This document shows, piece after piece, positions 5,447-60,349 of a stretch of DNA of 64,000 nucleotides. The notes under the pieces were generated by a model that was not told where the DNA came from, did not search any database, and saw nothing but the letters and a program-made list of their open reading frames with translations. The position numbers were made by a program, and so were the translations under genes. The stretch is from a virus. The DNA lies in the IMG/VR virus record IMGVR_UViG_3300037466_003456, positions 32,001-96,000 of that record. The stretch is one strand, 5' to 3'. The stretch's first letter is position 1. Each line of letters opens with the position of its first letter.

Positions 5447-5462
5447 CACTTTTCTTATAACA
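5447..5462 (-). promoter_or_regulatory. Phage early-type promoter motif TGTTATAAG-N4-GTG
   Basis: TGTTATAAGAAAAGTG; one of 10 copies, all upstream of SD/start on the minus strand. Confidence 0.7.
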
Positions 5463-5471
5463 GGAAAAAGA

Positions 5472-5499
5472 CAAAAAAATAAAGACCCCGAAGGGCCTT
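5472..5499 (-). terminator. Intrinsic terminator, cUUCGg-loop family
   Basis: GGCCCTTCGGGGTC followed by TTTATTTTTTT. Confidence 0.8.
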
Positions 5500-5506
5500 G
5501 CTATAG

Positions 5507-5791
5507 TTAATCAATTTCACTTTGATTTCGTTTGATTGCTGCTTTATTGGCTAAATAGGCACCAGCCAAACCACCTGCAGCTATTCCTCCTTTTAAAAAC
5601 TTAGGAAGATTGTTTTCCATTTCAGCTGTATTTTTCCCTTGCCAATCCATCATATTTAAGGTACCAATTAATCCAGCGAATCCTGCTCCTGCGCCGGCTA
5701 CCCCTCCGCCTAATGCACCTGCCAATGTGGGACCTGGATACACTTGTGATGGTTTCTTTTGTTCTTCCGCGATTTTTGCTAATCCAAACAT
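5507..5791 (-). CDS. Small Gly-rich hydrophobic protein with N-terminal K-x-A motif
   Basis: Start reassigned to MFGLAKIAEE after AGGAGG; two Gly-zipper-like segments. Confidence 0.7.
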   Translation of the reverse strand: MFGLAKIAEEQKKPSQVYPGPTLAGALGGGVAGAGAGFAGLIGTLNMMDWQGKNTAEMENNLPKFLKGGIAAGGLAGAYLANKAAIKRNQSEID

Positions 5792-5860
5792 TTGAACGAC
5801 CTCCTTTTTCATAACTGTATAATTATCATATTAGCATATTAACGACTTTCATATTTAAAT

Positions 5861-5887
5861 AAAAAAAGAAGACCCCGAAGGGTCTTG
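5861..5887 (-). terminator. Intrinsic terminator, cUUCGg-loop family
   Basis: AAGACCCTTCGGGGTCTT followed by a T tract. Confidence 0.8.
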
Positions 5888-5888
5888 C

Positions 5889-6218
5889 TCACTTTGCTTT
5901 ATTCATTCTTACTTTTATTATCAACGGTAGCCATGCTACAACTAATAATGCAAATACCTTTTTTGTTACTCTTTCGTCTAATAAATCGAGTAATTGTTTA
6001 TTTTCTACTACTACTTCATGCTTCTTATCGAATACCATGATCTCATCACGAATCATTGCTTTTTCTTCATACGTTTCTGCCTGATTCTTTTTGTCCAGTA
6101 ATTGTTCCAAACCTTCATCATACTGCTGCTTTCCTTCAACCATAAACTTTGTTGATAACTGCGCGATTACTGTTCCAATCAATAAATATACTGCTAATCC
6201 TATCATCATTCCTGTCAT
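5889..6218 (-). CDS. Membrane protein with N- and C-terminal hydrophobic segments
   Basis: Start reassigned to MTGMMIG after AAGGAG. Confidence 0.65.
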   Translation of the reverse strand: MTGMMIGLAVYLLIGTVIAQLSTKFMVEGKQQYDEGLEQLLDKKNQAETYEEKAMIRDEIMVFDKKHEVVVENKQLLDLLDERVTKKVFALLVVAWLPLIIKVRMNKAK

Positions 6219-6249
6219 TCTTTCCATCTCCTTAATTATTATTATCTTC

Positions 6250-6265
6250 CACCTTTCTTGTAACA
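6250..6265 (-). promoter_or_regulatory. Early-type promoter motif (variant)
   Basis: TGTTACAAGAAAGGTG. Confidence 0.6.
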
Positions 6266-6275
6266 TCTTTTTGAC

Positions 6276-6303
6276 AAAAAAATACAAGACCCCGAAGGGC
6301 CCT
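6276..6303 (-). terminator. Intrinsic terminator, cUUCGg-loop family
   Basis: GGGCCCTTCGGGGTC followed by a T-rich tract. Confidence 0.75.
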
Positions 6304-6309
6304 GCTGTT

Positions 6310-6546
6310 TTATGCTTCTGCTAATCTGCTTTCCAGTTTATCTTTTAAACTTTTCATTTCCTCCATTACCTGGCTGATTCGTTTGATACATTCTTCTGGG
6401 TTATTTGCACCTTTAAGAAATTCTCTGCATAATTTTAAAAAATGCATTGTTGTCGCCTTTACTATATCGCTTGGCTGCTTATATGCTAATTCTGCGATTT
6501 CCAATTGTATATCCTGACATTCGTCTAATAATTGTTCTACCTTCAT
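6310..6546 (-). CDS. Hypothetical helical protein (78 aa)
   Basis: ORF with AAGGAG SD inside a promoter/terminator cassette. Confidence 0.7.
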   Translation of the reverse strand: MKVEQLLDECQDIQLEIAELAYKQPSDIVKATTMHFLKLCREFLKGANNPEECIKRISQVMEEMKSLKDKLESRLAEA

Positions 6547-6571
6547 TTTTCATCTCTCCTTTAGTTTTATT

Positions 6572-6587
6572 CACTTTTCTTATAACA
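6572..6587 (-). promoter_or_regulatory. Early-type promoter motif
   Basis: TGTTATAAGAAAAGTG. Confidence 0.7.
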
Positions 6588-6599
6588 GGAAAAAGATAG

Positions 6600-6627
6600 A
6601 AAAAAATAAAGGACCCCGAAGGGCCCT
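6600..6627 (-). terminator. Intrinsic terminator, cUUCGg-loop family
   Basis: GGGCCCTTCGGGGTCC followed by TTTATTTTTTT. Confidence 0.8.
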
Positions 6628-6631
6628 CATG

Positions 6632-6781
6632 TTATAACCACAATAGGAATAATCCAAATCCTATTACCAACGATATTGCTAATACTTCATTTGCTATTTC
6701 TTCTTTCTCAGTGAAATAACTGTCTTCATCTGATCTTACTCTAAATCCTTTGTCTGTTGTTTCAATTGTATACTTGCTCAT
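6632..6781 (-). CDS. Small protein with C-terminal TM helix (49 aa, not in ORF track)
   Basis: MSKYTIETTDKGFRVRSDEDSYFTEKEEIANEVLAISLVIGFGLFLLWL; AAGGAG SD. Confidence 0.65.
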   Translation of the reverse strand: MSKYTIETTDKGFRVRSDEDSYFTEKEEIANEVLAISLVIGFGLFLLWL

Positions 6782-6812
6782 ACTTCCATCTCCTTAAATT
6801 GTTATTGTCTTC

Positions 6813-6828
6813 CACTTTTCTTATAACA
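6813..6828 (-). promoter_or_regulatory. Early-type promoter motif
   Basis: TGTTATAAGAAAAGTG. Confidence 0.7.
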
Positions 6829-6845
6829 GCTTTTTGGACAAATAT

Positions 6846-7067
6846 TTATCGGAACCGGCTCGCCTTTTTAATCACTTCAACAATCCCAGCACTTAGCAAC
6901 CCGATGCCACCATCAATGAAAAACAGAATGACTAATCCTAATGCCGCGATAATGATGGATGATACGATAATCGTTTTCTTTTTGTTTGGTGGTGGTGTTA
7001 CCCCAGTTGATTCGTTTACACATACCATGCTGTCACCTTGACGCTTAAATCTAAGTTGTCTCTCCAT
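6846..7067 (-). CDS. Small membrane protein (73 aa)
   Basis: AAGGAGG SD; hydrophobic C-terminal half. Confidence 0.6.
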   Translation of the reverse strand: MERQLRFKRQGDSMVCVNESTGVTPPPNKKKTIIVSSIIIAALGLVILFFIDGGIGLLSAGIVEVIKKASRFR

Positions 7068-7119
7068 GATGAAAACCCTCCTTAAAATTAAAAAAGCAGA
7101 ACCTTTTTCGGTTCTGCCT

Positions 7120-7200
7120 TCATCGCTTTGCTAAGTATTCTAATAATCTTATCTTCTGCGTCGCTGTTAAATTTCGCCATACTCTCACTTTAATCATCAT
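7120..7200 (-). CDS. Basic peptide (26 aa)
   Basis: MMIKVRVWRNLTATQKIRLLEYLAKR, between a promoter motif plus AAGGAG SD and a hairpin at 7096-7117. Confidence 0.45.
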   Translation of the reverse strand: MMIKVRVWRNLTATQKIRLLEYLAKR

Positions 7201-7225
7201 TCATTCTCACTCCTTTTGTTTTCTC

Positions 7226-7241
7226 CACTCTCCTTATAACA
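7226..7241 (-). promoter_or_regulatory. Early-type promoter motif
   Basis: TGTTATAAGGAGAGTG. Confidence 0.7.
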
Positions 7242-7264
7242 GGAAAACAAAGGTAGTTAAAAAA

Positions 7265-8494
7265 TTACCTCTTTACGAAAACATCTAAATATGAGAATTC
7301 CTTGTTTGGCGGAATAGGCACACCATTTTTAAATTTATAACCCATTCGTTCCAGTTTCCCACGAACACCAAGAGCCGACCTACCAATCCGTTCCCCGATG
7401 TCTTCCATACAATGACCTTTCATAACCATTGATTCAATTAGCTCCACTTGTTTCGGTGTATATTCATCGACTGGGCGAGCGGTAATATTTAATTTTCTCA
7501 TACGGTTTTTTAGTGAACTCACAGAACGACCAGTCTTTTTTGATATTTCCACGACGGTGAGATTTTCGTTGCACATTTGGATAAGTTTTTGTGATTCTTC
7601 CTCTGTCCATACTTTCCGTGTTTCCTTTTTAGGAAGCTGTGCGCGCAGCTGATCTATTGCCAAACGTCCGCTTGAATCTCTCGTTGGTATATATTCTTTT
7701 AACTGCACTTGAAGTTGGTCATATCTAATTTTGTCTCTGACCGAACCTACAGTCCTTTCAAGAGCAAAGGCCAATTCTACAATATTATATTTATGGTCTT
7801 TCCCCAATTCTAACAGCTGACGAACTTCTTCTTCAGACCAATTTGGACGTTCATGTGCCGATATGATGACGTCATCTGGATAAGCAATATTTGCGCGGAT
7901 TGGTCGAGCTTTTAAGCCGAGATTTTTTATTCTAGCTTTGATTGCTCCTTGACTTCGATTTAGGCGGTCGCTAATCTCTGCGTAGGTATAAATATAAGCA
8001 GACAGCATCCCTTTTAAAATGTTGTCTTCTTCGGTTGTCCATGCCGATTCGTTGCTCTTTTTGACCTTTCTTGCTTTGATATAATCCGCATTCCGTTTTT
8101 CCTTTAGCCAATTGGGTTCCTTGCCCAGTGAGTTCGGTCCTATTTTAGAGAAATCAACCATGTGCTTATTCGCTTCAAGCCATTTCCATAAATCCTTTTC
8201 TTTCACGACCAGAATTCGTTTTTCTGCGGTAAACTTTTTCGTCTTAGCAGGGAAGTCATATCGTTCGACCCAATTCATAATCCGTTTATAATCCACTTTC
8301 AAATATTTTGATAAGGAGTGAAGGGTAAAGCCTTCATAGTTATCAATAGGTCTCCCAAGTCCAAGTCTATTGGCTTTTAGCTTAATAGCATCTTCTGATC
8401 TGCCTAACTTTTTACTGATGGTTGGGAGAGAGTAGGTACCCCACCATTCTTCCAGCGCATCGACTTCTTCTCCCGTCCATTTCTTAACGCCCAT
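7265..8494 (-). CDS. Multi-repeat Myb/SANT-like helix-turn-helix DNA-binding protein
   Basis: Repeats KWTGEE, AWTTEED, NWSEEE, VWTEEE, EYTPKQ, each followed by an I/L-x-x-x-L/T-G-R-S-type HTH. Confidence 0.7.
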   Translation of the reverse strand: MGVKKWTGEEVDALEEWWGTYSLPTISKKLGRSEDAIKLKANRLGLGRPIDNYEGFTLHSLSKYLKVDYKRIMNWVERYDFPAKTKKFTAEKRILVVKEKDLWKWLEANKHMVDFSKIGPNSLGKEPNWLKEKRNADYIKARKVKKSNESAWTTEEDNILKGMLSAYIYTYAEISDRLNRSQGAIKARIKNLGLKARPIRANIAYPDDVIISAHERPNWSEEEVRQLLELGKDHKYNIVELAFALERTVGSVRDKIRYDQLQVQLKEYIPTRDSSGRLAIDQLRAQLPKKETRKVWTEEESQKLIQMCNENLTVVEISKKTGRSVSSLKNRMRKLNITARPVDEYTPKQVELIESMVMKGHCMEDIGERIGRSALGVRGKLERMGYKFKNGVPIPPNKEFSYLDVFVKR

Positions 8495-8726
8495 ACGTTA
8501 CCTCCTAGAAACTGCTCCTTTCATTGTAATAGGGAATGGTTACATTATGAAAGTAGCAAAATAGAAAATTAGAAAAAGAAAAAGAGAAAAGGAGACAATT
8601 TTATAGTTGTCTCCTCATCCCGCTTTGTTGACTTTATTCAGCTGCAATAATTCCCACGTTAAGTTAATGAATTTTTCTTGGTCCTGATCCTCTAATGCCT
8701 GGAGCATCTGGTCAATAACCTCCTCT

Positions 8727-8999
8727 TTAGGCGACTTGTTCTCTATCATTCTTCTCATCCTTTCTTATTTTTCTGCGAGTTTCTATATATTTTTTGATCA
8801 CATCTCGAGTAAATTCTTCTTCCGTTTTGTTGTAGTATTCTAAGGCGTCTTCAAAAGATAGGTCAGTAATGAAATAATGACTAAAATCATCTTTTAATTC
8901 TGAAATGGAAGTGGCTAAGTGGCAATATCCATAAGCGGCAGGGTAACAGGCATCACCGACAATAGTTTCGTAATTATAATCGTAACCAAACGTTTTCAT
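8727..8999 (-). CDS. Hypothetical protein (90 aa)
   Basis: ORF with AAGGAG SD. Confidence 0.6.
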   Translation of the reverse strand: MKTFGYDYNYETIVGDACYPAAYGYCHLATSISELKDDFSHYFITDLSFEDALEYYNKTEEEFTRDVIKKYIETRRKIRKDEKNDREQVA

Positions 9000-9012
9000 A
9001 TTTCATCTCTCC

Positions 9013-9144
9013 TTAAATAAAAAATAACATATCATCGTCATTATTCGGTTGAACCCAATCACAATCTCCACAGCCATATATATCAACACTTTCAACATTT
9101 ACATCAACGACTTGCAATTTTTGATTACAGAATGGACAATTCAT
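9013..9144 (-). CDS. Tiny Cys4 zinc-ribbon protein (43 aa)
   Basis: MNCPFCNQ...YGCGDCDW; GGAG SD. Confidence 0.6.
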   Translation of the reverse strand: MNCPFCNQKLQVVDVNVESVDIYGCGDCDWVQPNNDDDMLFFI

Positions 9145-9146
9145 TT

Positions 9147-9368
9147 TTAACACTCCTCATCTTCATCATCTAATTTAATCACAATCATGGATTTGCTAGT
9201 ATTCTTTCTTTTGTTTAACTTTTTCTGATAGGACGGTGTAGTGTAATACCAAATAGTGTAAGGTTTCATTCCTGTATAGTCTGCACACTCTTCAAGCGTT
9301 CCTAAACAAATAAAGGAGTCGCCTTTATATACGGCGTACTCCTTTACAGTCTGTTCATTCATACTCAT
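9147..9368 (-). CDS. Small phage protein, possibly DNA-binding
   Basis: EYAVYKGDSFICLGTLEECADYTGMKPYTIWYY resembles a common Firmicute phage HTH-like family; start after GAGGAG. Confidence 0.65.
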   Translation of the reverse strand: MSMNEQTVKEYAVYKGDSFICLGTLEECADYTGMKPYTIWYYTTPSYQKKLNKRKNTSKSMIVIKLDDEDEEC

Positions 9369-9372
9369 ATGT

Positions 9373-9492
9373 TCACTCCTCAATCAATTGATCCCAGCAT
9401 TCCTTACAGTATTTTTCTTCTTCAAAAAATATCGTTACTTGGATAGTTAGTTCTGATTCAGGAAATTCATTGTTACAATTACAGCACCTCAT
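9373..9492 (-). CDS. Tiny Cys-rich zinc-finger protein (39 aa)
   Basis: MRCCNCNNEF...YCKECW; ATGA overlap with the helicase stop. Confidence 0.55.
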   Translation of the reverse strand: MRCCNCNNEFPESELTIQVTIFFEEEKYCKECWDQLIEE

Positions 9493-11507
9493 ACCGGAAA
9501 CTCCAACTCAGCCAACAAGGACTCTAAATCACGATCCAAGTCATCCAAATTTATATCCGGAATTTCTTCATAATCCCTTTCCCCAAACATCAAGGCCTGA
9601 ATAATTTCTTCGCCCTTTTGTCGGTCTGTTTCATCCGGGATATTTGCTACTACTGCTTTTAATCCCACAATGTTTAATTCGCCTTCGATGATTCCAGACT
9701 GGAACCGAACGCGATCCGCACCAAATTCCTCTTTCAAGAAGCGCACCCGTTTCCATGCTTGCGATTCGAAGAAAGGAACATTAACATCAAGGACATCAAA
9801 AGATTCACCAATGGAGCCATCCTCACGCATACGAACGGTACGTCCAGCTCTCTGTGGTTCCCGTACTTCTGAACCCCCTGCATTAAAACGGACAATTTTA
9901 GAGGCATTTTTCGCATTGAAACCAACATCAAACACACTGGTTCCAATTAATACTTTAAACTCTCCATTTCGGTAAGCAGCAATCGTATCCTGCCGTAGTT
10001 TCTTTGGCGTATCTCCGTCAATATAATGGATATCATTTTCGTCCATTCCCATTTCTACTAGGATGTTCTTCACGATTTCCCCATGTGCCTTTCGGGTTAC
10101 AAGCGCAAGGACATAATAATCTTTTGCCCATTCCACGACCTTATTACAAAGGAATCGATTACGCACGTCGTTCTGAACAATAAAAATGTCATAGGCCTGA
10201 TGATAGTCCAGCTTCAAATCCTTCATAATCTTTTTATCCATCTTGTGGTCAAATTTCGTAAAATGACCGATGAACTCTGCTAATCTTCCTTTTTCAATCT
10301 GTTCGCCTGCAGAAGACACATAGCGCTGTTCACCTGTCGCAGCTACAATTTGAATCCCTCCGCCATCTGTTCGAACAGGGGTTGCCGAAAGGGTATAGCG
10401 GTAGGGGGCAGGGCAGGCATGAAGAAACTCATTCCACGAATCGGTTCCTAATACTTGGGCTTCATCCACGACAAACAGATCAACGCTTTGAAGGAAAGGA
10501 ATAATTTCGGCATGTCGTTTCAACTGCTTTTCGATGCTGCGGACACGGTTTTGAAACTTCTTTACTTCCTTCTCGCATTCCTTTTTATGCTCTTCATCGG
10601 TAGCAAATTGAAGGCGCTGTTCGGCTAGTTCGAGTTGATAATTCGCCACCTGTTGTTCCTTTGCAGTGGGAGGTTTCAAAGCAACAGAAATGGTTTGAAT
10701 GCTTGCAACCGTTATGTCACCTGGTTCGAATACTCCGTCGCCAATCATGCCAATCTTAATATCGTTGCCAGCAAAGACTTCATCGAAATCTGCTTTGGCA
10801 TCATCCGTCAAAACACGCTGATTCGCAATGAACATGGAACGGACACCTTTCTTAGCGATAAGAGAAGATGCTACGAAACTCGTTTTTCCAAATCCAGTGG
10901 GTAACTTTCCGATGCCACAATTCGCCGCGTCCAGTGCTTCAACGGAGGCAAATTGGTCTTCTGTAGGTTCAAAGGAGAACGTCGTCTTTAAATTGAAATA
11001 AGGTTCAGGATACTCGAATTCTCTTTCTACATGATAAGGAATGTCGTGTTTGTCTAAGATGGAGAGAATCCGTTCCAATAATCCTGACGGAAAACAGCCT
11101 TCTGTCACATTGAACAAATGGACATAGCCGCTCCATGTTTTCCCGTACAGCTTAGAGTTTTTTGCCTTTTTGTCCAAATAAGAAGTCGCTGGAATAATCT
11201 CATTCCAAGGAAGTCCTGCTCCTTGGATGTAACAAGTGGCAGGCATCCATTTGATAAAAATAGGGTTCTTTTTATTTAAAACAAAGTTGTTGGCGAACTT
11301 TTCATAAGAAAGCGAAAAGCCTAGTTGTTCCCGATACTTCTGACTTAACACTTCACGAACCACATTAAAGTGTTCGAGGGATATATAAAAATTGTTTTTG
11401 TAGTCTCTCGATTTAACTTCCTTCATGGCTTGAAGGTCGCCTTTAAATTCCTTAATATCGGCAATCTGGGAGAAGATCAATTCATTATTCTTTAAGTCTA
11501 AGAACAT
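9489..11507 (-). CDS. Superfamily 2 (DExD/H, UvsW/XPB-like) helicase
   Basis: Walker A LPTGFGKT, Walker B VVDEAQ, motif III SATP, motif VI QRAGR. Confidence 0.92.
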   Translation of the reverse strand: MFLDLKNNELIFSQIADIKEFKGDLQAMKEVKSRDYKNNFYISLEHFNVVREVLSQKYREQLGFSLSYEKFANNFVLNKKNPIFIKWMPATCYIQGAGLPWNEIIPATSYLDKKAKNSKLYGKTWSGYVHLFNVTEGCFPSGLLERILSILDKHDIPYHVEREFEYPEPYFNLKTTFSFEPTEDQFASVEALDAANCGIGKLPTGFGKTSFVASSLIAKKGVRSMFIANQRVLTDDAKADFDEVFAGNDIKIGMIGDGVFEPGDITVASIQTISVALKPPTAKEQQVANYQLELAEQRLQFATDEEHKKECEKEVKKFQNRVRSIEKQLKRHAEIIPFLQSVDLFVVDEAQVLGTDSWNEFLHACPAPYRYTLSATPVRTDGGGIQIVAATGEQRYVSSAGEQIEKGRLAEFIGHFTKFDHKMDKKIMKDLKLDYHQAYDIFIVQNDVRNRFLCNKVVEWAKDYYVLALVTRKAHGEIVKNILVEMGMDENDIHYIDGDTPKKLRQDTIAAYRNGEFKVLIGTSVFDVGFNAKNASKIVRFNAGGSEVREPQRAGRTVRMREDGSIGESFDVLDVNVPFFESQAWKRVRFLKEEFGADRVRFQSGIIEGELNIVGLKAVVANIPDETDRQKGEEIIQALMFGERDYEEIPDINLDDLDRDLESLLAELEFPV

Positions 11508-11573
11508 ATTGTTCTCCTTTCATAATTTCGCAGTTTGATAATTCAATATTATCATAACTATAAAATTACGAAT

Positions 11574-11783
11574 TTAAATAATTTCATCACAATGCAGATT
11601 ACAACCGCAATACGTACAATAGTTTAAATGTTCCATCTTGATGCCCTTATCCTGTTTAATGAAGGAGAAAATGCTAACATCATGTTTACGTATTTCTAAC
11701 GCCTTTTGTCTCATTTCCTTCTCCGTCATTCCTTCACAAACGTGAATATAACTTTCTTGAGAGTTTTTATCTTTAATGAACAT
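11574..11783 (-). CDS. Hypothetical protein with C-terminal CxxC
   Basis: ORF with GGGGG SD; YCTYCGC motif. Confidence 0.6.
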   Translation of the reverse strand: MFIKDKNSQESYIHVCEGMTEKEMRQKALEIRKHDVSIFSFIKQDKGIKMEHLNYCTYCGCNLHCDEII

Positions 11784-11844
11784 TGTTTATTCCCCCTTAT
11801 AAAATTAGAAAAAGGGACAATTATGTAATTGTCCCTTCGTGTTT

Positions 11845-12861: not shown

Positions 12862-12880
12862 TCATTCCACTTCCTTTTTG

Positions 12881-13663: not shown

Positions 13664-13716
13664 TGTTCCCTCTCCTTTCTAAAATAAAAAAGGACAGCAA
13701 TATTGCTGCCCCTTTC

Positions 13717-13902: not shown

Positions 13903-13938
13903 TCTTCTCACCTCATGTCATTTTTTTTACTTCCTTTC

Positions 13939-13954
13939 CATTATTCTTATAACA
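13939..13954 (-). promoter_or_regulatory. Early-type promoter motif (GTG replaced by ATG)
   Basis: TGTTATAAGAATAATG. Confidence 0.6.
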
Positions 13955-18370: not shown

Positions 18371-18375
18371 GTTCC

Positions 18376-24360: not shown

Positions 24361-24376
24361 CACTGTCCTTATAACA
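24361..24376 (-). promoter_or_regulatory. Early-type promoter motif
   Basis: TGTTATAAGGACAGTG. Confidence 0.7.
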
Positions 24377-32368: not shown

Positions 32369-32985
32369 TCATCTCCTAAATCGTTATTTACTTCCACATT
32401 CCTTATAACATGGTTTCTGCATTTTCTGGACTCCAGCAAGTTGGGGGTTAATGGCTTAAAATCCGTTTGAATTTTCCTCGGAACAAAGTTAGCTAACGCA
32501 TGACAAAGGCTGGATTCATCGTAATAATTACCTGTCATAAACAAATGGGTCTTAAATACTAGAATGATAAAAACCTTTTGATACTTACCGATGTTTTCAA
32601 TTTCTTTGATAATGGGCTTCGTATTTCGGATGTACACTTTTGGTTTTTCCTTAATTTTGCGAAACATGGATTCTGGATCCCGTTTCATTTCATTCATTGT
32701 AAAAAATAAAGCCCCTCTTACTTCTTTTTGAGTGAGAGGGGCATGGGTCGGTTCGTATACAGACCAATGAGTATTTTGTTTATTAAACCGAAAAACATAA
32801 GCTGCTCTTAAATTTGGAATCGTAACTAAATTTAAGATGCACCGTTTTAAACAAACGTCCATTTCGTCGTTCGTCGCAGTGCAATCAGCAATCGGCAATT
32901 CATAAATTTGCTTGGCATAAGGGTTTTTATTGATGATTGGGAACGGAGACTTCGCCAACACTTTAAGCATCATACCACCTCTCAA
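32365..32985 (-). CDS. Hypothetical protein (206 aa)
   Basis: ORF; its 3' end contains the next promoter motif. Confidence 0.65.
   Translation of the reverse strand: MRGGMMLKVLAKSPFPIINKNPYAKQIYELPIADCTATNDEMDVCLKRCILNLVTIPNLRAAYVFRFNKQNTHWSVYEPTHAPLTQKEVRGALFFTMNEMKRDPESMFRKIKEKPKVYIRNTKPIIKEIENIGKYQKVFIILVFKTHLFMTGNYYDESSLCHALANFVPRKIQTDFKPLTPNLLESRKCRNHVIRNVEVNNDLGDE
32395..32410 (-). promoter_or_regulatory. Early-type promoter motif (inside the 3' end of the upstream CDS)
   Basis: TGTTATAAGGAATGTG. Confidence 0.65.
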
Positions 32986-33538: not shown

Positions 33539-33554
33539 CACCTTACTTATAACA
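33539..33554 (-). promoter_or_regulatory. Early-type promoter motif
   Basis: TGTTATAAGTAAGGTG. Confidence 0.65.
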
Positions 33555-36609: not shown

Positions 36610-36654
36610 CAAATAAGTTTTTATGCCCCACACAAGAATAGGAGGATGGTGCAT

Positions 36655-37458
36655 ATGGAACAATTCTATTTTCTTAAAGAAGCATTTGCTCAACAAAAAG
36701 GGAGATTATCCGAGGAAGAGGAATTACATCTATTGAAACAATATCAGGCGGGAGATTCACAATCAGGGGATAAATTAACGTTATCACTCCGTCCCCTAAT
36801 TGAAAAAGCCATAGTGGATGTAAGCCCTGGTGGGAACGATGTCTCCTCTTCCAATCTACGGATGAGGGCTCATGTAGAGTTACCTAAGATTCTACAAAAC
36901 TATGATCAAAACCGAGATATCAAACTAAAGACGTTTGTAACGTCTCAGCTAAAAGGTTATCTTCGCAATGCGGTAGCAGAAAATGTGAGTGGCGCTTACG
37001 TTCCTCGGAATCAGCATACCGATTTAGAGCGGTACCGCCAAGCGGTAAGGGATGCGCAAATGGAATTCGGACACAATCCATCCGAAGACCAGATTCGTTC
37101 GTTTTACCCAGAAGATGAAGCCAGCACCAGTTTCGATAAAATCAAACAATACCATTTAAACAACTATCTGGGTGACGCTACTTTCGGTCAAGGCGAAGAA
37201 AGTGAAGGATTAACGTTCAAAGATCAGTTTGCGAATGATGAGGATACTATTGATCACGATGACCTCTTTTCTTCCCTATATGATGACGAAGAAAATGATA
37301 TAATTGCTAAAAATTTCACAGCTCAAGAACAACAAGTCATCGACAAAGTTAATAAAGAAGGTCAGTCCTTTGTCAATGCTGCCTTATCACTCGGAATCAG
37401 CACAGCCGAAGTCCGAAAAACGATGAGGCGCTGGCACGAAATCACTAAAAATAAATAG
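36655..37458 (+). CDS. Phage sigma-70-family RNA polymerase sigma factor
   Basis: Region 1.2/2 (LSEEEELHLLKQYQAGD..LRPLIEK, FVTSQLKGYLRN..YVPR), region 3 (GHNPSEDQI), region 4 HTH (SFVNAALSLGISTAEVRK). Confidence 0.8.
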   Translation: MEQFYFLKEAFAQQKGRLSEEEELHLLKQYQAGDSQSGDKLTLSLRPLIEKAIVDVSPGGNDVSSSNLRMRAHVELPKILQNYDQNRDIKLKTFVTSQLKGYLRNAVAENVSGAYVPRNQHTDLERYRQAVRDAQMEFGHNPSEDQIRSFYPEDEASTSFDKIKQYHLNNYLGDATFGQGEESEGLTFKDQFANDEDTIDHDDLFSSLYDDEENDIIAKNFTAQEQQVIDKVNKEGQSFVNAALSLGISTAEVRKTMRRWHEITKNK

Positions 37459-52693: not shown

Positions 52694-53028
52694 TGCTTCG
52701 TGCCTATGATCTTTCTTCCATGACGGAAAAAGCAAATGAATTATTAAATGATCCATCCTTACGGTTAATTAGCTTAAATATTTCCTGTTCTGCTGAAACG
52801 GCCTACACGGTTGCAAGCATGCGTCTTGCGCCGTGTCCTGCTAGGGAAACGAGATTCAACCGCTATTTGGAACGATTCATTTTGCTTGGAGGAAGTGGGA
52901 ATCATGATTTAGATAGAAAATTAGCCGATAAAAATGTTCGATTGCTGAAACAGCATATTTTCCCGACCAGCGAAGGGACGATCGTGGTCATCGATTATCA
53001 GGTTAAAAAAGGAAGGACGGTTGACTAA
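52693..53028 (+). CDS. Hypothetical protein (111 aa) coupled to portal and RNAP
   Basis: TAATG overlaps at both ends. Confidence 0.65.
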   Translation: MLRAYDLSSMTEKANELLNDPSLRLISLNISCSAETAYTVASMRLAPCPARETRFNRYLERFILLGGSGNHDLDRKLADKNVRLLKQHIFPTSEGTIVVIDYQVKKGRTVD

Positions 53029-56000
53029 TGGAACAGTTCAATCATCAGCAAGCGGTTGAAAACCTACATGCTAAAGTAAAAGCTATTTTTGATCAATACT
53101 TCCCATACGAAAGAAATGATTATCGTTTTGAGGTGAAGAACATCCACTTCGAAGATCCTTCCATTTCGCATGCTAGCCAAGAACAGGCTTTCTTAAATGA
53201 CTCCAGCATTGAATCCCTTGTTCGTGGTGACGTAGAAGTTTACCACAAAGGGCAGTTGGTGAAGACACACACTAATCAAATTCTAGTCCGTATCCCTTAC
53301 CCAACGGAAAGAGGTACATACATTGCAGCAGGAAACGAACTGGCTGTTTTAAATCGTATGTCGAGAAGGAATGGAATCTACATTCACCCTGTTAGGGATA
53401 TTCGGCATACGCAAATCCTTACAGCAGAAGTCCGTTCAAAAGGCTCTCGTTTCGAAATCAATTTTGATACAAACAGAGGTCAAATCAAGATTGAGAAATT
53501 AGGAGATTTCGGTAAAAGCAGTCCTGGTTCCATTGATTTAATCTCATTCCTTCATGTATTAGGTGTAACGGATGCGGAAATCAAGTCCGCTGTGAATGAT
53601 AAGGAATTGTCAGATACCCTTCTTGCCAATTCAACCAATGCGACTACACAAAAAATCTACACCGCTATTTTTGCCAAGGAATATCCGGGAGCAGAAGAAG
53701 CAAAGCAACAAATTATTGATTTCGTCAATGGTCGCTTAGTCTTTGATCAAGACGCCCAAAAAGTGAATAATCAAACCATTGGTTCTCCTATCAGCGTATT
53801 TGATGCCAGCGCCTTTTTACAGACACTTTCCCAGCTTAGTAAGGAATACCGAAGTCCGGGAACAACGGTGGAGCCTGACGATTTCCGTTTTAAAGAAATT
53901 AAGGCACCAGAAGACACCGTTTCTGAATTTGTCCGCAGAGGGATTAAGGAGTGGGTAGACAAAAGGCTCCGTCCGATTACTTATTCCGATTACAATGACC
54001 GAAAAACCATCAATGCCAAACCAGACCAATTCATTTACAGACCTATTAAATCACTCTACAACAGTGATATTGCGGAACTAGTAGATAGCGCAAATCCTCT
54101 GGATGTGCATCAAAAACTCTATAAAGTAACACAGGTCGGCACTGGAAATATGAACAAGAAATCGGTAACGAACTATAACCGTAATATTCAGGACACAGCA
54201 TTTGCGAAAGTCGATGCCCTTGAAACTCCACAAAGCTACAGTATGGGATTGGTGCAGCATTTCGCTTCGGGAGCCAAAATTAAGGATGGCCGTGTCTATT
54301 CGAAGTTTTATCGGGTGAACAATGGAAAAATCGATACAAGCAAAGTTATCGATGACATTGACCCTCTCGACGAGTATGAAGAGTTTATCGGATTTAACAC
54401 ACCCGCAGAATTAAATAAGGATGCAAGTGGCCATATTACTTCTTTCAAAAACGATCAGGTTCGAGTCCGTCATCACGGGACCTTCATGACCGTTCCGAAA
54501 AATCAAGTAACCCTAATTGATACCAGTTCTTCTGCACATATGAGCCATGCCTTGAGTTTAATTCCATTTGGTGCAAGCAATGATGGCGCGCGTATGCTGA
54601 TGGGAGCATCGATGCAAAAGCAATCGTTAAATCTCGAGAATCCTGAAGCTCCACTTGTGCAAAGTATATCCGATCCTGTAACCGGAAAAACAGTTGAACA
54701 AGAAATGGCAGACCGAGCTTCTTATATCCTTCGTTCCCCTGTCAGCGGCACGGTTAAGCATATTGGAGAAAACTCCATTGATATCGATACGGGAGATGGT
54801 GTTCATAAGGTTGACAAGCTAAATTATTTTGTCACAGGCAAAGCAGGTGGATTTATTCATCACAAACCAACAGTGAAAGTCGGAGATACCGTTCAGAAGG
54901 ATGATTTGCTTGCTGACGGCTGGCAAAGTAAGAACGGACAGTTGGCATTGGGTAGAAACATCACCGTCGCTTACATGCCGTTTAAGGGCTACAATTTTGA
55001 GGATGGAGTAGTAGTTTCAGAGAGTTTCGCTAAAAAAATGGCGTCGGAAGAAGTAAAACCTCTTGAGATTATCCTAGAATCACAGAATGGCAGAGTTTTA
55101 TTCAATGACCCTAAAGCAACGTCCATCCTTAATGGGTTACACGTGTCTCCTGCCCTGTTATCTAAGTTGGATTCAAACGGAATCATCAAGAAGGGCGAGG
55201 AAGTTCATGCTGGCGATATCCTTGTCGCAGCGGTAAAGGAAATTGAAAAAGAAGATTTATCAGCTGGACAAAGAGATTTGAAGAATTTACTGCGTGGGAA
55301 GATCGTTCAAAGCGAAGCCGATAATTACAAAGATGTTTCCCGGAGAGCAGTCGGTTACCAGAAAGGAAAAGTCATCAATGTGCAAGTGACCAATACCGCA
55401 GAAGGACAAACTAAAGTAACGATTCTTCTTTTATCCTTCAAACCCATGGAATTGGGAGATAAACTATCTGGAAGACACGGAAACAAGGGTACGATTACTA
55501 AAATACTTCCTGACGATCAAATGCCTCATACAGAGGATGGAAAGCCAGTTGAATTGATTTTCTCCCCTCTTGCGGTGCCGTCGAGAAAAAATCCGGGGCA
55601 GCTTTATGAAGTGAATGCCGGACTGGTCGCACAGAAAAAAGGAATGGATGTTTACAAGGTTCATAACTTTGATGCCAATGAAGTGGATAAGCTGAAGAAA
55701 CACCTTGAAGACATTGGCATGCCAGATGGAAAGCAAACATTGATTAATCCCGACACCGGAAAACCTTATGAAAATAAGATTACTGTGGGTCCCATGTTTA
55801 TTTTAAAACTGAAACATAAAGTAGAAAGCAAGATTACGGCAAGAAATATAAACGGTTCTCAGGATCCTCTCAAATTATCGCCAAGAAAAACATCAGGTTC
55901 CATTGATGGGGATCGCCACAATCCGCAATCTGTGGGGGGAATGGAGTTCTGGAGCCTAACAAGCGCCGGCGCTGTTCATAACATTCACGATATGACCACT

Positions 56001-59000
56001 CTTAAATCCGATGGAGCTGGAGATAAAAAACGACGGAAAGAAATCTTTGATGCGATAAGACGTGGGATGCCGATTCCTGAACCTGTCACTCCTCAGAGTG
56101 TGAAGATATTAGGAGACAAACTATTATCCGCAGGGGTGCAAATGACTCCTCTTCGTGAAGATAAACAAGTTTCTCTCGATGATAAGTTTACGGAACTTAT
56201 GCTCAATCCATTAAGAAAAGACGACCTTATGAATCTGGCAAAAGACAAGGTAACTTCTTCTAAGGGGATGATCGCAAGAACCAAAAATTTCGCTCCTGGC
56301 GGTATTTATGACCCTGAGATTTTTGGTGCAGACGGTTCACAATGGGCAAGGATTGATTTAGCGGAACCAATGCCAAATCCGTTATTCCTTGAAAACAATA
56401 CGGGACCTCGCCCATATGAAGCGATGTTGTTTTCGAAAGGATATAAACAAACGGACATTAAAAATCTAGTGAATGGTGATATGTTCCTTGTAGAAGACCC
56501 GAAGGATTCAGGATTAAAACAAGGAGAATTGGTCAATTTAAAACAGTTAGACGACCTAATGGCAGAAGGAAAAAAACTAGTGACTGATACCGGAGGTAGA
56601 GCCCTTTCAAAGTTATTAGAAAAGGTTGATATAAAGGAAGAGTTAAAGAAAGCAGAAAGCCGTTTAAGTGAAGCAAAGACGCTTGCTCAACGCTCAAAGG
56701 CTGAACAACAAGTATTAGTATTAGGGAAAGCCTTAGATCAAAAATTGAAGCCGACAGACTTTATGATGACTTCTGTTCCTGTCCTCCCTGTTAAATATAG
56801 GGAACCTAAGCTCGACGGAAAAGTGTTTACCGAGGATGGAATCTCCAAACTCTATAACAACTTAATCAAAAAGAACGATGAATATGAAAAATTCAAAGAG
56901 GCACATAACGGAGATCTTTCCAATTCGGACCGTTCCGCATACGCAGGAGCGATGGGAGATTACTACGATGGTCTTAAGGATATTATCGGCACTAAGCTAA
57001 AACCTGTAGTAGACGATAAGACTGGTCAGCCATTGAAAGGTATCATGCACACCTTAAAGTCCAAACAAGGATTTCTCCGTTCCAACATGCAATCGAAAAT
57101 GCAAGATTACTCAGGACGTTCCGTTATTATCGTTGATCCTACTCTGAAGCTGGATGAAGTGGCCCTGCCGGAAGACATGGCAAGCGAACTGTTCCTCCCT
57201 CATGTCATGGGTGAGCTACAACGATTACGCTACTCTCCGAAAGAAATCGAACATTTTGTTACGCATAAGACGAAAGAATTCCGAGATGCCTTGGAGAAAG
57301 TAACCAAGAATCATCCTGTCATTTTAAACCGTCAACCTTCTTTGCACCGCCATAGTTTACAAGCCTTCTACCCTAGAATTAACTGGAATGGGGATAAGGT
57401 AAAACATCGTGCAATCGGGCTAAATCCCGTTGTTACGACAGGGTACAACGCTGATTTTGATGGTGACACGATGTCTGTACATGTGCCAATCACACCTGCT
57501 GCCATCGAAGAAGCAAAGAACAAATTGCTTCCAAGTCAGAATCTACTCAACCCGACAAACAATGGCATCATCACTGACCTAAAACACGAAATGCAACTAG
57601 GAATCTTCTATATGACACGGGATATTCTACCTCAAGGAAAGCCGGAGGAGTTCTCCAATTTCCGAGAATTAGAGGATGCTTATAATAAAGGCCGCATTAA
57701 AACCTATGAATCGGTTCGGATGAATGTTCCTGGTATCGGTTTGGTCACAGCAACAGCAGGACAGCATCTATTTAACCTTTCTCTACCAATGGGATTCCAA
57801 GATTATGAGGGCAACAAAAACGTCAACAAAGGCAAGATGGAGAAGATTCTTTCTAAGATCATCAATGCTCCGAATGGCGGCGCTCAAAAAGCAGTTCAAG
57901 CGATCAATGCCTTACAGACGATTGGGTTCCAAACCGCCACATATTCAGGGATGAGCATTGGGGCAAAAGACTTTGAACCAGTGCTTCAGGAGAAACAAAA
58001 CCATCTTTTAGAGGCGGCAGAAAAACAATTCGGTAAAGCAGAGAACCGATTAGCCGCAGGATTATTGGATGTACGACAGGTGTGGGATGAGGAGAAAGCA
58101 AAGCTCGCCAAGAATCATCTAGTCGATTACATTAAGACTTCCCTTGACTCTAACAATCCTGTGGAAATCATGCAGCGTTCAGGAGCTCGTGGTAATGCCG
58201 GACAGATCAATGCGATGGCGGGTATTATCGGGGTTGGTAAAGACGTCACAGGTCGGGAAACACGTGCGATTACCGGCTCTCACCTAGAAGGTTTAAGTCC
58301 TGACCAATTCTGGGATTTAGCTTACGACAGCCGTAAAGGGATTCTGGATAAATCCATCTCTACTCAAGACCCAGGTGCTTTAACACGAGAAATCTGGATG
58401 ACGAATAAGCAAACTGTCATTTCGGAACGTGATTGTGGTGATACGCAAGGTATCTGGCTGGATATGACAAACAGTAGTGATAAACAAACCATTAAGGGGC
58501 GTGTGTTATTACATGATGTTCCCCTTTCAAAAGGCGGGGTTGTACGTGTCACTCGACGTCCTTTGACCGTTCATGAGGAAGAATTGATTATGTCTCATGC
58601 AAAAGGAAAAGTGAATGTTCGCAGTCCGTTAAGCTGTAAATCCACAAGTGGAGTCTGTCAGATGTGTTATGGAAGAAAGCCAGGAGGCGTGACGAATGAT
58701 TTCATTCCAATTGGTGACCCTGTTGGAAGTATCGCAGCTCAGGCGCTGGGCGAACCATCCACTCAGGCCATCTTGAAGGCATTTCACGTCGGCGCGGCCA
58801 ATGCCGCTGCTTCAAATGCGTTTGAACGGATTCAAGAAGCTCTCCGGATTCCACAGCATTTGAAAAACACTTCTAAAGAGGCAGTCATTGCAGAGGAAGA
58901 TGGTGTGGTAACAGATGTTGAACATCATCCGATTACCGGAACCGTTGTAAAAATCGGAAGCAAGAAATACAAATTGCATCACAAAGTATTATCCGATTTC

Positions 59001-59753
59001 GTCAAAGCAGGTGCCCATATCAATAAGGGAGATTTGTTGACCAAGGAGTTTACAGATAGTGGCGATCGTTTGGTTATCCGAAATCCACATGATGTCTTAA
59101 AATTCCAAGGAGTAGATGCAGCTCAGGATTATATCATGAGAGCCATTGAAGATGGATACCACGCGGCGGATATTAAAGATACAGACCGCAGACACTATGA
59201 GGTCATCACCCGTAATATGATGGATCATGCAGTCATCAAAAACCCTGGCACTTCCCCTTATACGTCAGGTCAGGTCGTTCCGCTTAGCACGGTGGAAAAA
59301 TATAATCAGTTGGCCGGAAGAGTTCACTCTGTTGCGATGGATTACTCTAATCGGATGAATGTCATTGGAGCTGTGGCGGCACAGGATTACAATGATCCAA
59401 TCACCATGAAGCCAATTGTCCATAAAGGTGAAGTTATCACGGAACCTATTTGGGAACAACTGAAAAACAGACAGCATATCAAGGTTCAGAAAAAACCGCT
59501 TGAGTACGAGCGAAAACTTATCGGGGTTAATACTAAGAGCTTAAAAGGTAACAATTGGTTAGATTCCGCTGGTTTCGGGGATGCAACCCGATTAATTGGC
59601 GAAGCGGCTGTCCTTGGCATGAAGGATAAGTTGGATACACCTCTTTCTCGTCAAATGACAGGACTAAAAGGTAACTTCTCTGACGGGTATGAACCGCACA
59701 AAGAGAAAGAAAAAGAACATGGAATTATGGCGTTTGTCCATGGTTTCTTGTAA
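53028..59753 (+). CDS. rpoBC: DNA-directed RNA polymerase, fused beta-beta-prime subunits (2241 aa)
   Basis: Beta motifs: LETPQ, LIPF..NDGARMLMGASMQKQ, GYNFEDG, GDKLSGRHGNKG, MFILKLKH. Beta-prime motifs: DYSGRSVI, LNRQPSLH, YNADFDGD (57444-57467), SGARG, RSPLSC..GVCQMCYG, AQALGEPSTQ. Confidence 0.97.
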   Translation: MEQFNHQQAVENLHAKVKAIFDQYFPYERNDYRFEVKNIHFEDPSISHASQEQAFLNDSSIESLVRGDVEVYHKGQLVKTHTNQILVRIPYPTERGTYIAAGNELAVLNRMSRRNGIYIHPVRDIRHTQILTAEVRSKGSRFEINFDTNRGQIKIEKLGDFGKSSPGSIDLISFLHVLGVTDAEIKSAVNDKELSDTLLANSTNATTQKIYTAIFAKEYPGAEEAKQQIIDFVNGRLVFDQDAQKVNNQTIGSPISVFDASAFLQTLSQLSKEYRSPGTTVEPDDFRFKEIKAPEDTVSEFVRRGIKEWVDKRLRPITYSDYNDRKTINAKPDQFIYRPIKSLYNSDIAELVDSANPLDVHQKLYKVTQVGTGNMNKKSVTNYNRNIQDTAFAKVDALETPQSYSMGLVQHFASGAKIKDGRVYSKFYRVNNGKIDTSKVIDDIDPLDEYEEFIGFNTPAELNKDASGHITSFKNDQVRVRHHGTFMTVPKNQVTLIDTSSSAHMSHALSLIPFGASNDGARMLMGASMQKQSLNLENPEAPLVQSISDPVTGKTVEQEMADRASYILRSPVSGTVKHIGENSIDIDTGDGVHKVDKLNYFVTGKAGGFIHHKPTVKVGDTVQKDDLLADGWQSKNGQLALGRNITVAYMPFKGYNFEDGVVVSESFAKKMASEEVKPLEIILESQNGRVLFNDPKATSILNGLHVSPALLSKLDSNGIIKKGEEVHAGDILVAAVKEIEKEDLSAGQRDLKNLLRGKIVQSEADNYKDVSRRAVGYQKGKVINVQVTNTAEGQTKVTILLLSFKPMELGDKLSGRHGNKGTITKILPDDQMPHTEDGKPVELIFSPLAVPSRKNPGQLYEVNAGLVAQKKGMDVYKVHNFDANEVDKLKKHLEDIGMPDGKQTLINPDTGKPYENKITVGPMFILKLKHKVESKITARNINGSQDPLKLSPRKTSGSIDGDRHNPQSVGGMEFWSLTSAGAVHNIHDMTTLKSDGAGDKKRRKEIFDAIRRGMPIPEPVTPQSVKILGDKLLSAGVQMTPLREDKQVSLDDKFTELMLNPLRKDDLMNLAKDKVTSSKGMIARTKNFAPGGIYDPEIFGADGSQWARIDLAEPMPNPLFLENNTGPRPYEAMLFSKGYKQTDIKNLVNGDMFLVEDPKDSGLKQGELVNLKQLDDLMAEGKKLVTDTGGRALSKLLEKVDIKEELKKAESRLSEAKTLAQRSKAEQQVLVLGKALDQKLKPTDFMMTSVPVLPVKYREPKLDGKVFTEDGISKLYNNLIKKNDEYEKFKEAHNGDLSNSDRSAYAGAMGDYYDGLKDIIGTKLKPVVDDKTGQPLKGIMHTLKSKQGFLRSNMQSKMQDYSGRSVIIVDPTLKLDEVALPEDMASELFLPHVMGELQRLRYSPKEIEHFVTHKTKEFRDALEKVTKNHPVILNRQPSLHRHSLQAFYPRINWNGDKVKHRAIGLNPVVTTGYNADFDGDTMSVHVPITPAAIEEAKNKLLPSQNLLNPTNNGIITDLKHEMQLGIFYMTRDILPQGKPEEFSNFRELEDAYNKGRIKTYESVRMNVPGIGLVTATAGQHLFNLSLPMGFQDYEGNKNVNKGKMEKILSKIINAPNGGAQKAVQAINALQTIGFQTATYSGMSIGAKDFEPVLQEKQNHLLEAAEKQFGKAENRLAAGLLDVRQVWDEEKAKLAKNHLVDYIKTSLDSNNPVEIMQRSGARGNAGQINAMAGIIGVGKDVTGRETRAITGSHLEGLSPDQFWDLAYDSRKGILDKSISTQDPGALTREIWMTNKQTVISERDCGDTQGIWLDMTNSSDKQTIKGRVLLHDVPLSKGGVVRVTRRPLTVHEEELIMSHAKGKVNVRSPLSCKSTSGVCQMCYGRKPGGVTNDFIPIGDPVGSIAAQALGEPSTQAILKAFHVGAANAAASNAFERIQEALRIPQHLKNTSKEAVIAEEDGVVTDVEHHPITGTVVKIGSKKYKLHHKVLSDFVKAGAHINKGDLLTKEFTDSGDRLVIRNPHDVLKFQGVDAAQDYIMRAIEDGYHAADIKDTDRRHYEVITRNMMDHAVIKNPGTSPYTSGQVVPLSTVEKYNQLAGRVHSVAMDYSNRMNVIGAVAAQDYNDPITMKPIVHKGEVITEPIWEQLKNRQHIKVQKKPLEYERKLIGVNTKSLKGNNWLDSAGFGDATRLIGEAAVLGMKDKLDTPLSRQMTGLKGNFSDGYEPHKEKEKEHGIMAFVHGFL

Positions 59754-59784
59754 AATAGAGGAGTAATCATTTAATTCAAGGAAG

Positions 59785-59955
59785 AACTTTCAACTTTTGG
59801 GGAATTGCTTTTCTTTCCCCTGAAGCCTTGCACTAGGGGTCAAGTCTTCGAAAAAGGTTGAAGTAAAGGAAAAGAGTGAACCTCGAAGCGTTTAGGCTAG
59901 AAAAGTCCGTTGTTCGCTGTGACGTCCCCGATTCGGTCGCAGGCTCGATTCTTCT
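59785..59955 (+). ncRNA. Candidate structured non-coding RNA
   Basis: Nested stems in a gene-free gap: TTCAACTTTT/AAAAGGTTGAA, GGGGAA/TTCCCC, GAAG/CTTC, AAGAGT/ATTCTT, TGTGAC/GTCGCA. Strand assumed. Confidence 0.3.
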
Positions 59956-59961
59956 TCAAAC

Positions 59962-59998
59962 AAAAAAACAGAAGACCCCAAAGGGTCCTCTGTTTTTT
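59962..59998. terminator. Bidirectional intrinsic terminator
   Basis: AAAACAGA.GACCC-CAAA-GGGTC.TCTGTTTT. Confidence 0.8.
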
Positions 59999-60001
59999 GT
60001 T

Positions 60002-60310
60002 TTATTCTTCAATGCTTGCTACTGCTTCTTTAAGTCCAATAAATTGACCTCTATCATATTCTTCTTCGAATGCTAATTCATGTGCTTCCTCAATATCTGC
60101 TACACGTGTTTTTGCTACTGCATCAATTTTGAAATTCTCTTCTAATGCTAATTCGCGTGCTACTTCAACATCTGTAATGCGCGTTGCTTGCTCTTCTGTG
60201 ATTTGTACACTTGATTGTTTTTCATTAGCTGCTAAATATGCTAATCCAAATCCTACTCCAAATCCTACTAAACCTAATATTACTTTTGTTCCTTTTTTCA
60301 TCAATACCAT
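60002..60310 (-). CDS. N-terminally membrane-anchored acidic protein with internal duplication
   Basis: VILGLVGFGVGFGLAYL; repeat TRITDVEVARELALEENF / TRVADIEEAHELAFEEEY. Confidence 0.7.
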   Translation of the reverse strand: MVLMKKGTKVILGLVGFGVGFGLAYLAANEKQSSVQITEEQATRITDVEVARELALEENFKIDAVAKTRVADIEEAHELAFEEEYDRGQFIGLKEAVASIEE

Positions 60311-60333
60311 CTCCTAAAATTGTTATTTACTTC

Positions 60334-60349
60334 CACTTTGCTTATAACA
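60334..60349 (-). promoter_or_regulatory. Early-type promoter motif
   Basis: TGTTATAAGCAAAGTG. Confidence 0.7.

Follow-up and report, generated by a model that had tools for sequence, protein, structure and literature searches.

The window analysed here is a 64-kb stretch of DNA, bases 32001-96000 of the single 121,681-bp virus record IMGVR_UViG_3300037466_003456, which represents an uncultured phage; the sequencing runs in which its DNA was found are soil and rhizosphere metagenomes, with no RNA run among them. Its genes are arranged in four strand blocks. The plus-strand blocks carry tail, baseplate and lysis genes, the large terminase, a portal-like gene and a fused RNA polymerase of 2241 amino acids (aa), which matches Pfam Rpb2_6 (expectation value, E, 5e-71) as well as several Rpb1 domains. 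The minus-strand blocks comprise many small open reading frames (ORFs), helicase genes, primase-like, SbcCD-like and DnaJ-like genes, and AimR. At junctions between these minus-strand genes a nine-base box, TGTTAYAAG, recurs, followed four nucleotides (nt) further on by GTG. We propose that this box is probably a phage promoter of the non-structural, minus-strand genes, common to a lineage of phages and read by a phage sigma factor together with the phage polymerase. The ten copies and the two key genes lie as follows in window coordinates, with SD denoting a Shine-Dalgarno sequence and HTH a helix-turn-helix.

5447..5462, minus strand: copy TGTTATAAG-aaaa-GTG, after the terminator hairpin 5499-5482 and before an SD and a small ORF
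6250..6265, minus strand: C variant TGTTACAAG-aaag-GTG, after the terminator 6305-6284 and before the 109-aa ORF 5889-6218
6572..6587, minus strand: copy TGTTATAAG-aaaa-GTG, after the terminator 6628-6609 and before the ORF 6310-6546
6813..6828, minus strand: copy TGTTATAAG-aaaa-GTG, before the small ORF 6632-6781
7226..7241, minus strand: copy TGTTATAAG-gaga-GTG, downstream of the gene for a 409-aa multi-HTH regulator and followed by a 26-codon ORF and the terminator 7121-7092
13939..13954, minus strand: copy TGTTATAAG-aata-ATG, the sole copy without GTG, before the ORF 13717-13902 and an operon running down to a helicase gene
24361..24376, minus strand: copy TGTTATAAG-gaca-GTG, heading an operon with a 12-paralog array and a gene for a 1080-aa primase-like protein
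32395..32410, minus strand: copy TGTTATAAG-gaat-GTG, heading an operon of SbcD-like, DnaJ-like and SbcC-like genes
33539..33554, minus strand: copy TGTTATAAG-taag-GTG, whose leader has a terminator-like hairpin and T-run before the SD of the ORF 33139-33477
60334..60349, minus strand: copy TGTTATAAG-caaa-GTG, before the ORF 60002-60304 and convergent with the 3' end of the polymerase gene
36646..37458, plus (late) strand: gene of 269/270 aa for a sigma-70-family protein (phrog_351, E 1.2e-9), candidate reader of the box
53028..59753, plus strand: gene for the fused beta-beta' RNA polymerase of 2241 aa, directly after the portal-like gene and a small gene

The preliminary description of the window had reported these ten copies, most of them with GTG at a fixed distance and all shortly upstream of an SD, and had likened them to an extended -10 promoter that has G for the last T and lacks a -35 element; each of these observations was borne out. 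All ten are present on the minus strand, the one at 6257 being the C variant; GTG follows the 9-mer by exactly 4 nt in 9/10, with ATG taking its place at 13946; and 10/10 lie at gene junctions, counting downstream ORFs of at least 20 codons, with an SD-like box and start codon 25-68 nt downstream. Some head the replication and recombination operons of the phage. Exact matches to TGTTAYAAG number 13 in the window, 13/13 on the minus strand, as against a mean of 0.97 and a maximum of 3 in dinucleotide shuffles (0/100 shuffles reach 13). Over the 121,681-bp genome there are 17, again all on the minus strand (17/17), and the plus strand carries no copy at all. Three of the 13 window matches fall within ORFs, with no GTG following, and are taken for chance occurrences outside the set: 240-248 (antisense to a plus-strand ORF), 22137-22145 and 39961-39969 (both C variants). 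A further C variant at genome position 105954 was left out of the set as doubtful, since it shares bases with the stop codon of the ORF before it and leads directly into the terminator of that gene.

A weight matrix applied to the whole genome returned 14 junction sites at 24.5 bits or more, one doubtful site at 21.5 and all others at or below 13.4; as the matrix was trained on the same sites, only the gap in score is informative. Among these 14 strong sites, 13 begin with the TG of an extended -10 promoter at -15/-14 (the remaining one has GG). The hexamer keeps the A at position 2 of TATAAT and departs from that consensus at position 6, where 14/14 have G instead of T. No conserved -35 hexamer is present across the box sites of the genome. 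Within the window a G six nt past the 9-mer is conserved in 9/10 copies. The 9-mer is asymmetric: it is not its own reverse complement, each junction has a single copy, and the opposite strand has none. A scan of 5000-14500 for the sigma-70 consensus, which requires the hexamer-final T, yielded 29 sites against 25.4 +/- 4.8 expected and picked up none of the box copies. Upstream, a run of at least five T lies within 40 nt in 7/10 copies, and terminator-like hairpins stand just before those at 5454, 6257 and 6579 according to a pattern scan that found 13 terminator-like sites in 5000-14500 against 6.3 +/- 2.6 expected. In contigs of four DNA runs over 5000-24900 the seven boxes covered are unchanged, but the contigs are too short and their variation too sparse for this to bear on constraint.

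No close relatives were found in the phage collection by megablast of 5000-8000 or by tblastn of an 819-aa ORF. Relatives of the polymerase, 26-30% identical, occur in IMG/VR, in metagenomes and in cultured phages, and sigma homologues 58-90% identical were also found, four of which, at 58-66%, are encoded on contigs of 79-152 kb. We compared the phage under study (G000) with four genomes that share its polymerase, namely G001 (174,885 bp, 95% complete), Salmonella phage Arash, Vibrio phage D69 and G005, and with G004. In G001, Arash, D69 and G005 the box, in the form GnTATAAG-N4-RTR, is enriched and strand-biased. Matches to TG.TATAAG on the forward and reverse strands number 0/16 in G000, 17/1 in G001, 0/18 in Arash (all of them TGGTATAAG) and 1/24 in D69, where shuffled sequences give means of 2.7-10.7 for both strands together across the four genomes. 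The 9-mer TGTTAYAAG itself occurs 12 times forward and once in reverse in G001, against 1/0 for the reversed-pattern control, and in G005 an unbiased k-mer count returned GGTATAAG as the most enriched non-coding 8-mer (2/18). Counted on the motif strand and the other strand, G.TATAAG stands at 21/2, 26/9, 34/2, 39/9 and 21/2 in five genomes; G.TATAAT, G.TATAAA and G.TATAAC lack this strand bias, and the bacterial-type TG.TATAAT is at or below shuffled expectation in the four genomes tested.

The G at the second position of the box is kept in every box-carrying relative, and the downstream N4-RTR is kept as well, as GTGAAGG in G001, GTGTAA in Arash and ATAGAG or ATGTAA in D69. G001 has a copy at the relative place equivalent to 60334..60349. 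The DNA flanking the box shows no similarity between relatives. In D69, G001 and Arash a weak -35-like box can be made out, by eye and in an information profile, about 17 bp ahead of TATAAG; G000 has none. The box is not enriched in three other phages with beta/beta' genes, Yersinia phage GN1, Cobetia phage Carin-5 and Rhizobium phage TM21B (5/5, 4/2 and 1/2, against 6/5, 4/4 and 6/5 for the controls), and none of the three has a gp10-family sigma, the type described below. An exact scan of IMG/VR for TGTTATAAGNNNNGTGGAAG gave 14 single matches, of which 12, judged by eye, fall in coding sequence or are repeats of one gene family; the matches L017 and L018 look promoter-like by eye.

In the relatives, the box also precedes genes that are not translated. 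It ends 9 nt before a tRNA-Glu gene in G001 and 12 nt before an annotated tRNA-Asn gene in Arash, and in three relatives every tRNA gene lies on the motif strand (20/20, 25/25 and 22/22). Since tRNA genes have no ribosome-binding site, the box is no translation signal, and its place 9-12 nt before them identifies it as a promoter. Between 58 and 84 kb in Arash, 7/7 boxes stand at junctions before annotated minus-strand genes or tRNA.

Proteins that could read the box are encoded in several of the phages. Arash, D69, G001 and G000 each have at least two phrog_351 sigma-like genes. One family is that of Arash gp10, with a D69 counterpart 44% identical and a G001 counterpart at E 1.2e-30. In G000, the 269-aa sigma is the best match to a profile of these three proteins, at E 1.1e-5 (next match 0.039). 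It aligns by phmmer against the PDB with regions 2-3 of RpoS and SigA (RpoS residues 79-253, E 2e-4), although no Pfam family passed. Its AlphaFold model (pLDDT, the predicted local distance difference test, 78.4) matches whole sigma-S chains in Foldseek at E 8.3e-7 over 279 columns and also aligns with whole sigma-A and sigma-B chains; the template-modelling score is only 0.38 because the domain arrangement differs. As modelled, the protein has sigma-2, sigma-3 and sigma-4 in order, a full sigma fold. The second sigma of G000, of 194 aa, lies on the motif strand outside the window, at genome 102953-103537 (L003 8953-9537); it carries Pfam Sigma70_r2 and most resembles sporulation SigF (PDB 1l0o chain C, E 3.7e-7) and FliA. 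The next gene codes for a multi-HTH regulator of 310 aa, paralogous to the 409-aa protein at window 7265-8494. D69 has its second sigma gene 1.6-1.9 kb downstream of two boxes. Single-sequence searches of the relatives with either G000 sigma returned nothing, and comparisons with gp196, the second Arash sigma, give E 0.08 and 29.

What the phages share besides the box is confined to a few modules. By phmmer, the polymerase, portal and terminase of G000 and two of its tail-module proteins have matches in each of G001, Arash and D69; a baseplate protein and two other proteins of the plus-strand structural block match in one or two of them. Outside the structural and polymerase modules there are only two minor matches, and no regulator is common. 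Since the structural module and the polymerase are shared and no regulator is, the box has been inherited together with them. The order portal or portal-like gene, small gene, polymerase is common to G000 (50660-59753) and Arash (128120-134670), the polymerase being split into beta and beta' in Arash and fused in G000 and G001. In G000, the polymerase and the 269-aa sigma are both encoded in the late, virion-gene strand block, and since the plus strand has no box, these two genes belong to another class. The study of Arash detected beta (gp206), beta' (gp216) and sigma gp10 in purified virions, gp206 being the most abundant of all proteins detected; it does not use the word 'promoter' (PMC10585845).

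The preliminary description had taken the motif for the recognition element of the phage RNA polymerase, probably for early transcription. Its assignment to a promoter and to the phage transcription machinery is supported by the occurrence of the box in relatives that share the polymerase, by the lack of TGnTATAAT enrichment and by the boxes before tRNAs. We would revise the reader: given the sigma-70-type layout and a full-length phage sigma, it is probably the sigma and not the polymerase core that recognises the box. Early timing we infer from the packaging in Arash virions (PMC10585845).

Several observations weigh against our proposal. The 269-aa sigma is only weakly similar in sequence to gp10: the database behind its profile E of 1.1e-5 was very small, a profile of two gp10-type sequences missed it, and pairwise BLASTP against gp10 gives E 5e-4 to 3e-3. 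The box might instead be read by the 194-aa SigF/FliA-type sigma, encoded on the motif strand. In G004 a clear gp10-type sigma (E 1.2e-40) goes with almost no boxes: this 56%-complete fragment of 60% G+C lacks TGNTATAAG and has three TATAAG in 106 kb. All three lie on one strand, each followed by N4-RTG. Conversely, no sigma was found in the box-carrying G005, which is 52% complete. The genomes share ancestry, and their box counts are thus not independent events. Packaging of polymerase and sigma is known from Arash alone within the lineage, not from G000. Finally, an extended -10 can partly offset a poor hexamer with host enzymes, and use by the host is thus possible.

Phage sigma factors with promoter classes of their own are well established, among them gp55, which serves the T4 late promoter TATAAATA, and gp28 and gp33/34 of SPO1. 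The box resembles these systems in its phage-encoded sigma-family protein and in forming a class apart from the host's promoters, which permits a temporal programme; it differs in that T4 and SPO1 employ the host core, whereas the present lineage has its own beta/beta' and Arash packages sigma and polymerase together. One could accordingly suppose that the 269-aa or the 194-aa sigma reads the box with the host core, leaving the phage polymerase to another class of genes. A host core redirected by a phage sigma, as by T4 gp55 and SPO1 gp28, is the usual case (general knowledge, reviewed for jumbo phages in PMC7824862), and the 194-aa protein resembles a Bacillota SigF, which suggests a host origin. 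We nonetheless regard this arrangement as unlikely, for four of the five box-carrying genomes clearly combine a gp10-type sigma with the polymerase (the incomplete G005 being the one without a detected sigma), sigma, beta and beta' all occur in the Arash virion, and the box stays constant while the hosts differ (Salmonella, Vibrio and the host of a soil phage). That the copies are ordinary host sigma-A/sigma-70 extended -10 promoters ending in G by chance seems to us quite unlikely. TG-n-TATAA agrees with the extended -10 consensus at 8/9 positions, and such promoters need no -35 (general knowledge). The box also shares with bacterial extended -10 promoters the expected distances to start and SD and a likely reader of the sigma-70 family. 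Against a host promoter stand the G that all strong copies have, the bias of G.TATAAG towards one strand in five genomes, the near-expected consensus scan of 5000-14500, the unenriched true consensus in four genomes, the persistence of the box in phages of different hosts and a conserved start-site box, which is unusual for host promoters.

The box could also be mainly an operator. A study of SPbeta describes SPBRE, a site of about 15 bp in some ten promoter regions of a large arbitrium-bearing Bacillus phage, bound by the recombinase-fold repressor MrpR (PMC10516654). Here, too, there are about ten copies in promoter regions of a large phage with arbitrium, an integrase-family protein of 180-214 aa adjoins the promoter cluster, and two multi-HTH regulators are encoded, any of which might use the box mainly as an operator. 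SPBRE is a repressor site defined by ChAP-seq (chromatin affinity purification with sequencing), whereas the box, judged from its sequence, has neither symmetry nor paired half-sites; it is oriented with the downstream gene (0/17 on the other strand), has a -10 and start-site layout, lies 9-12 nt before tRNA genes in relatives, and is kept in lytic phages that infect Gram-negative hosts and in which no early gene or regulator in common with G000 could be detected. SPBRE/MrpR is a look-alike in copy number only, and we consider an operator role very improbable. An assignment to an SPbeta-like phage with SPBRE sites was likewise dropped: the 2241-aa ORF is a fused polymerase, and no similarity to SPbeta was found. 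Least probable of all, in our view, is a repeat without a specific reader, a by-product of duplicated or mobile cassettes of terminator, promoter and leader, or an RNA signal. Some features would fit: the copies at 5454, 6257 and 6579 share an upstream terminator, several share the leader GTGGAAGTAAATAACAATTT..AGGAGATGG, and a natural variant lacks 5480-5879 with its joint beside a promoter. However, the copies at 7233, 13946, 24368 and 33546 have only the box in common, and the box is kept in genomes whose flanking DNA bears no similarity.

Our proposal of a lineage promoter read by phage sigma and polymerase can be extended into a mechanism. The promoter would consist of an extended -10, TG-n-TATAAG, with G for the near-invariant last T, then four A-rich bases and a GTG start box, with no fixed -35 element in G000; transcription would start at the third base of the GTG box, six bases past the 9-mer. 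Its most likely reader would be the 269-aa gp10-family sigma with the fused beta-beta' polymerase. Polymerase and gp10-type sigma would be made late in one infection and packaged, and on entering the next cell would read the GnTATAAG promoters of the incoming DNA without the host enzyme, the hexamer-final G keeping the phage and host promoter sets apart. A product of the motif strand, perhaps the second sigma, would then turn on the late strand. Taken as a whole, a lineage-wide grammar GnTATAAG-N4-RTR read by virion-delivered polymerase and sigma, with a T-to-G switch, a second sigma for the late strand and one copy under AimR control, is a tentative scheme that we find plausible, though somewhat short of probable.

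The copy that this scheme would place under AimR control lies at genome 107755-107763 (L003 13755-13763), downstream of AimR and 44 nt past the stop of an aimP-like ORF. The AimR gene, at genome 108021-109163, matches Pfam AimR at E 8.8e-50. In known arbitrium systems the AimR-controlled promoter sits downstream of aimP. A transcript from the copy at genome 107763 would open with a long perfect hairpin followed by a 103-aa ORF; the gene for the 194-aa sigma lies about 4 kb and two terminators further downstream. An arbitrium pair directly upstream of a promoter of the box class would offer a handle on the target of the signal in a polymerase-bearing phage.

Among known systems, the early promoters read by virion polymerases in the AR9/phiKZ group are the nearest functional analogues. 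The AR9 early promoter reads AAATATATATTAT-(6N)-G+1 and is served by a virion multisubunit polymerase, as in the phiKZ group (PMC5312081). Common to both would be an over-represented, conserved AT-rich box with a conserved G six bases downstream, in our case a putative early class with a predicted +1, and a virion-carried polymerase, which in the present lineage is known only from Arash. The jumbo-phage polymerases are split and highly divergent, and no sigma is found in those phages (PMC7824862). In contrast, the present polymerase matches the bacterial-type Pfam domains strongly and is accompanied by sigma-70-family proteins, and the box sequences differ. Recognisable beta and beta' genes are also a feature of the mReC Caudovirales, a lineage of tailed phages of about 100-180 kb that has a deeply branching multisubunit polymerase and is mostly metagenomic (Weinheimer and Aylward 2020, PMC7481178). 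The similarity measured for the present polymerase is 27-30% identity to fused polymerases on IMG/VR and metagenome contigs. The words 'promoter' and 'sigma' do not appear in that paper (PMC7481178).

A search of open-access papers and bioRxiv, with subscription journals outside its range, found neither a description of the motif nor a promoter study of such phages. If our reading is true, the box would be the first promoter described for phages with a bacterial-type beta/beta' polymerase and their own sigma factors. In T7, N4 and jumbo phages, phage polymerases are known to have promoters of their own. The box would also make early and middle transcription units simple to annotate in these genomes, and the hexamer-final G in place of T is a single-base candidate determinant separating phage from host promoters. 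The cultured members Arash and D69 allow direct testing.

A short hairpin and T-run stand directly after two of the copies, before the SD, at window 33480-33539 and genome 98232-98280 (GTGGTAGAAAGATAG...CTATCTTATTTTTT and GTGGAAAGATAAATCTTTTTATTTTTTT), and these leaders may be attenuators that need antitermination. Two copies outside the window, at genome 119610-119943 (L004 11610-11943) and L004 9801-9984, have leaders of about 325 and 270 nt with a G-rich start and hairpins. Rfam gave no family match in 131.7 kb (the window plus L001-L004, overlaps included), a span that includes the leaders after genome 119943 and 117984, and no tRNA was found in the long leaders at L004 11610-11943 and 9801-9984. 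These long leaders may be non-coding RNAs.

The cassette variant is documented by contigs of one soil run, which join 5479 to 5880 with 16 other letters between, so that the terminator-gene cassette 5480-5879 is missing; the break adjoins a promoter copy, and the variant suggests cassette exchange at promoter/terminator borders. Among the relatives, one of the 20 tRNA genes of G001, at 41926-42001, has a CTA anticodon and is called tRNA-Pyl by aragorn; it is a possible amber suppressor.

A second motif, TAGGACT/AGTCCTATA, is present 20 times in both orientations, with 13 of the copies between genes. Sites in the window include 38248-38254, 41332-41338, 46924-46930, 33615-33621 and 4258-4264, and genome sites include 1207, 3379, 23159, 24209, 99077, 99748, 110716 and 111952. 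The genes that follow are mostly late, structural ones on the plus strand, and a TACAAT-like box is often close by; the motif may serve as an operator or as a late promoter. Its two orientations and its position, chiefly ahead of genes on the plus strand, led to its rejection as a -35 partner of TGTTAYAAG. The late-strand junctions of D69 and Arash show TAAAATA(T/C) instead, by eye only. Lastly, sigma-A-like promoters (TTGCAC-17-TACAAT and TTGATA-18-TATAAT) adjoin small HTH genes in the right-hand minus-strand block, at a divergent junction and another close to it (genome 110950-111180 and 112849-112936); they may form a host-read switch region apart from the phage promoter class.

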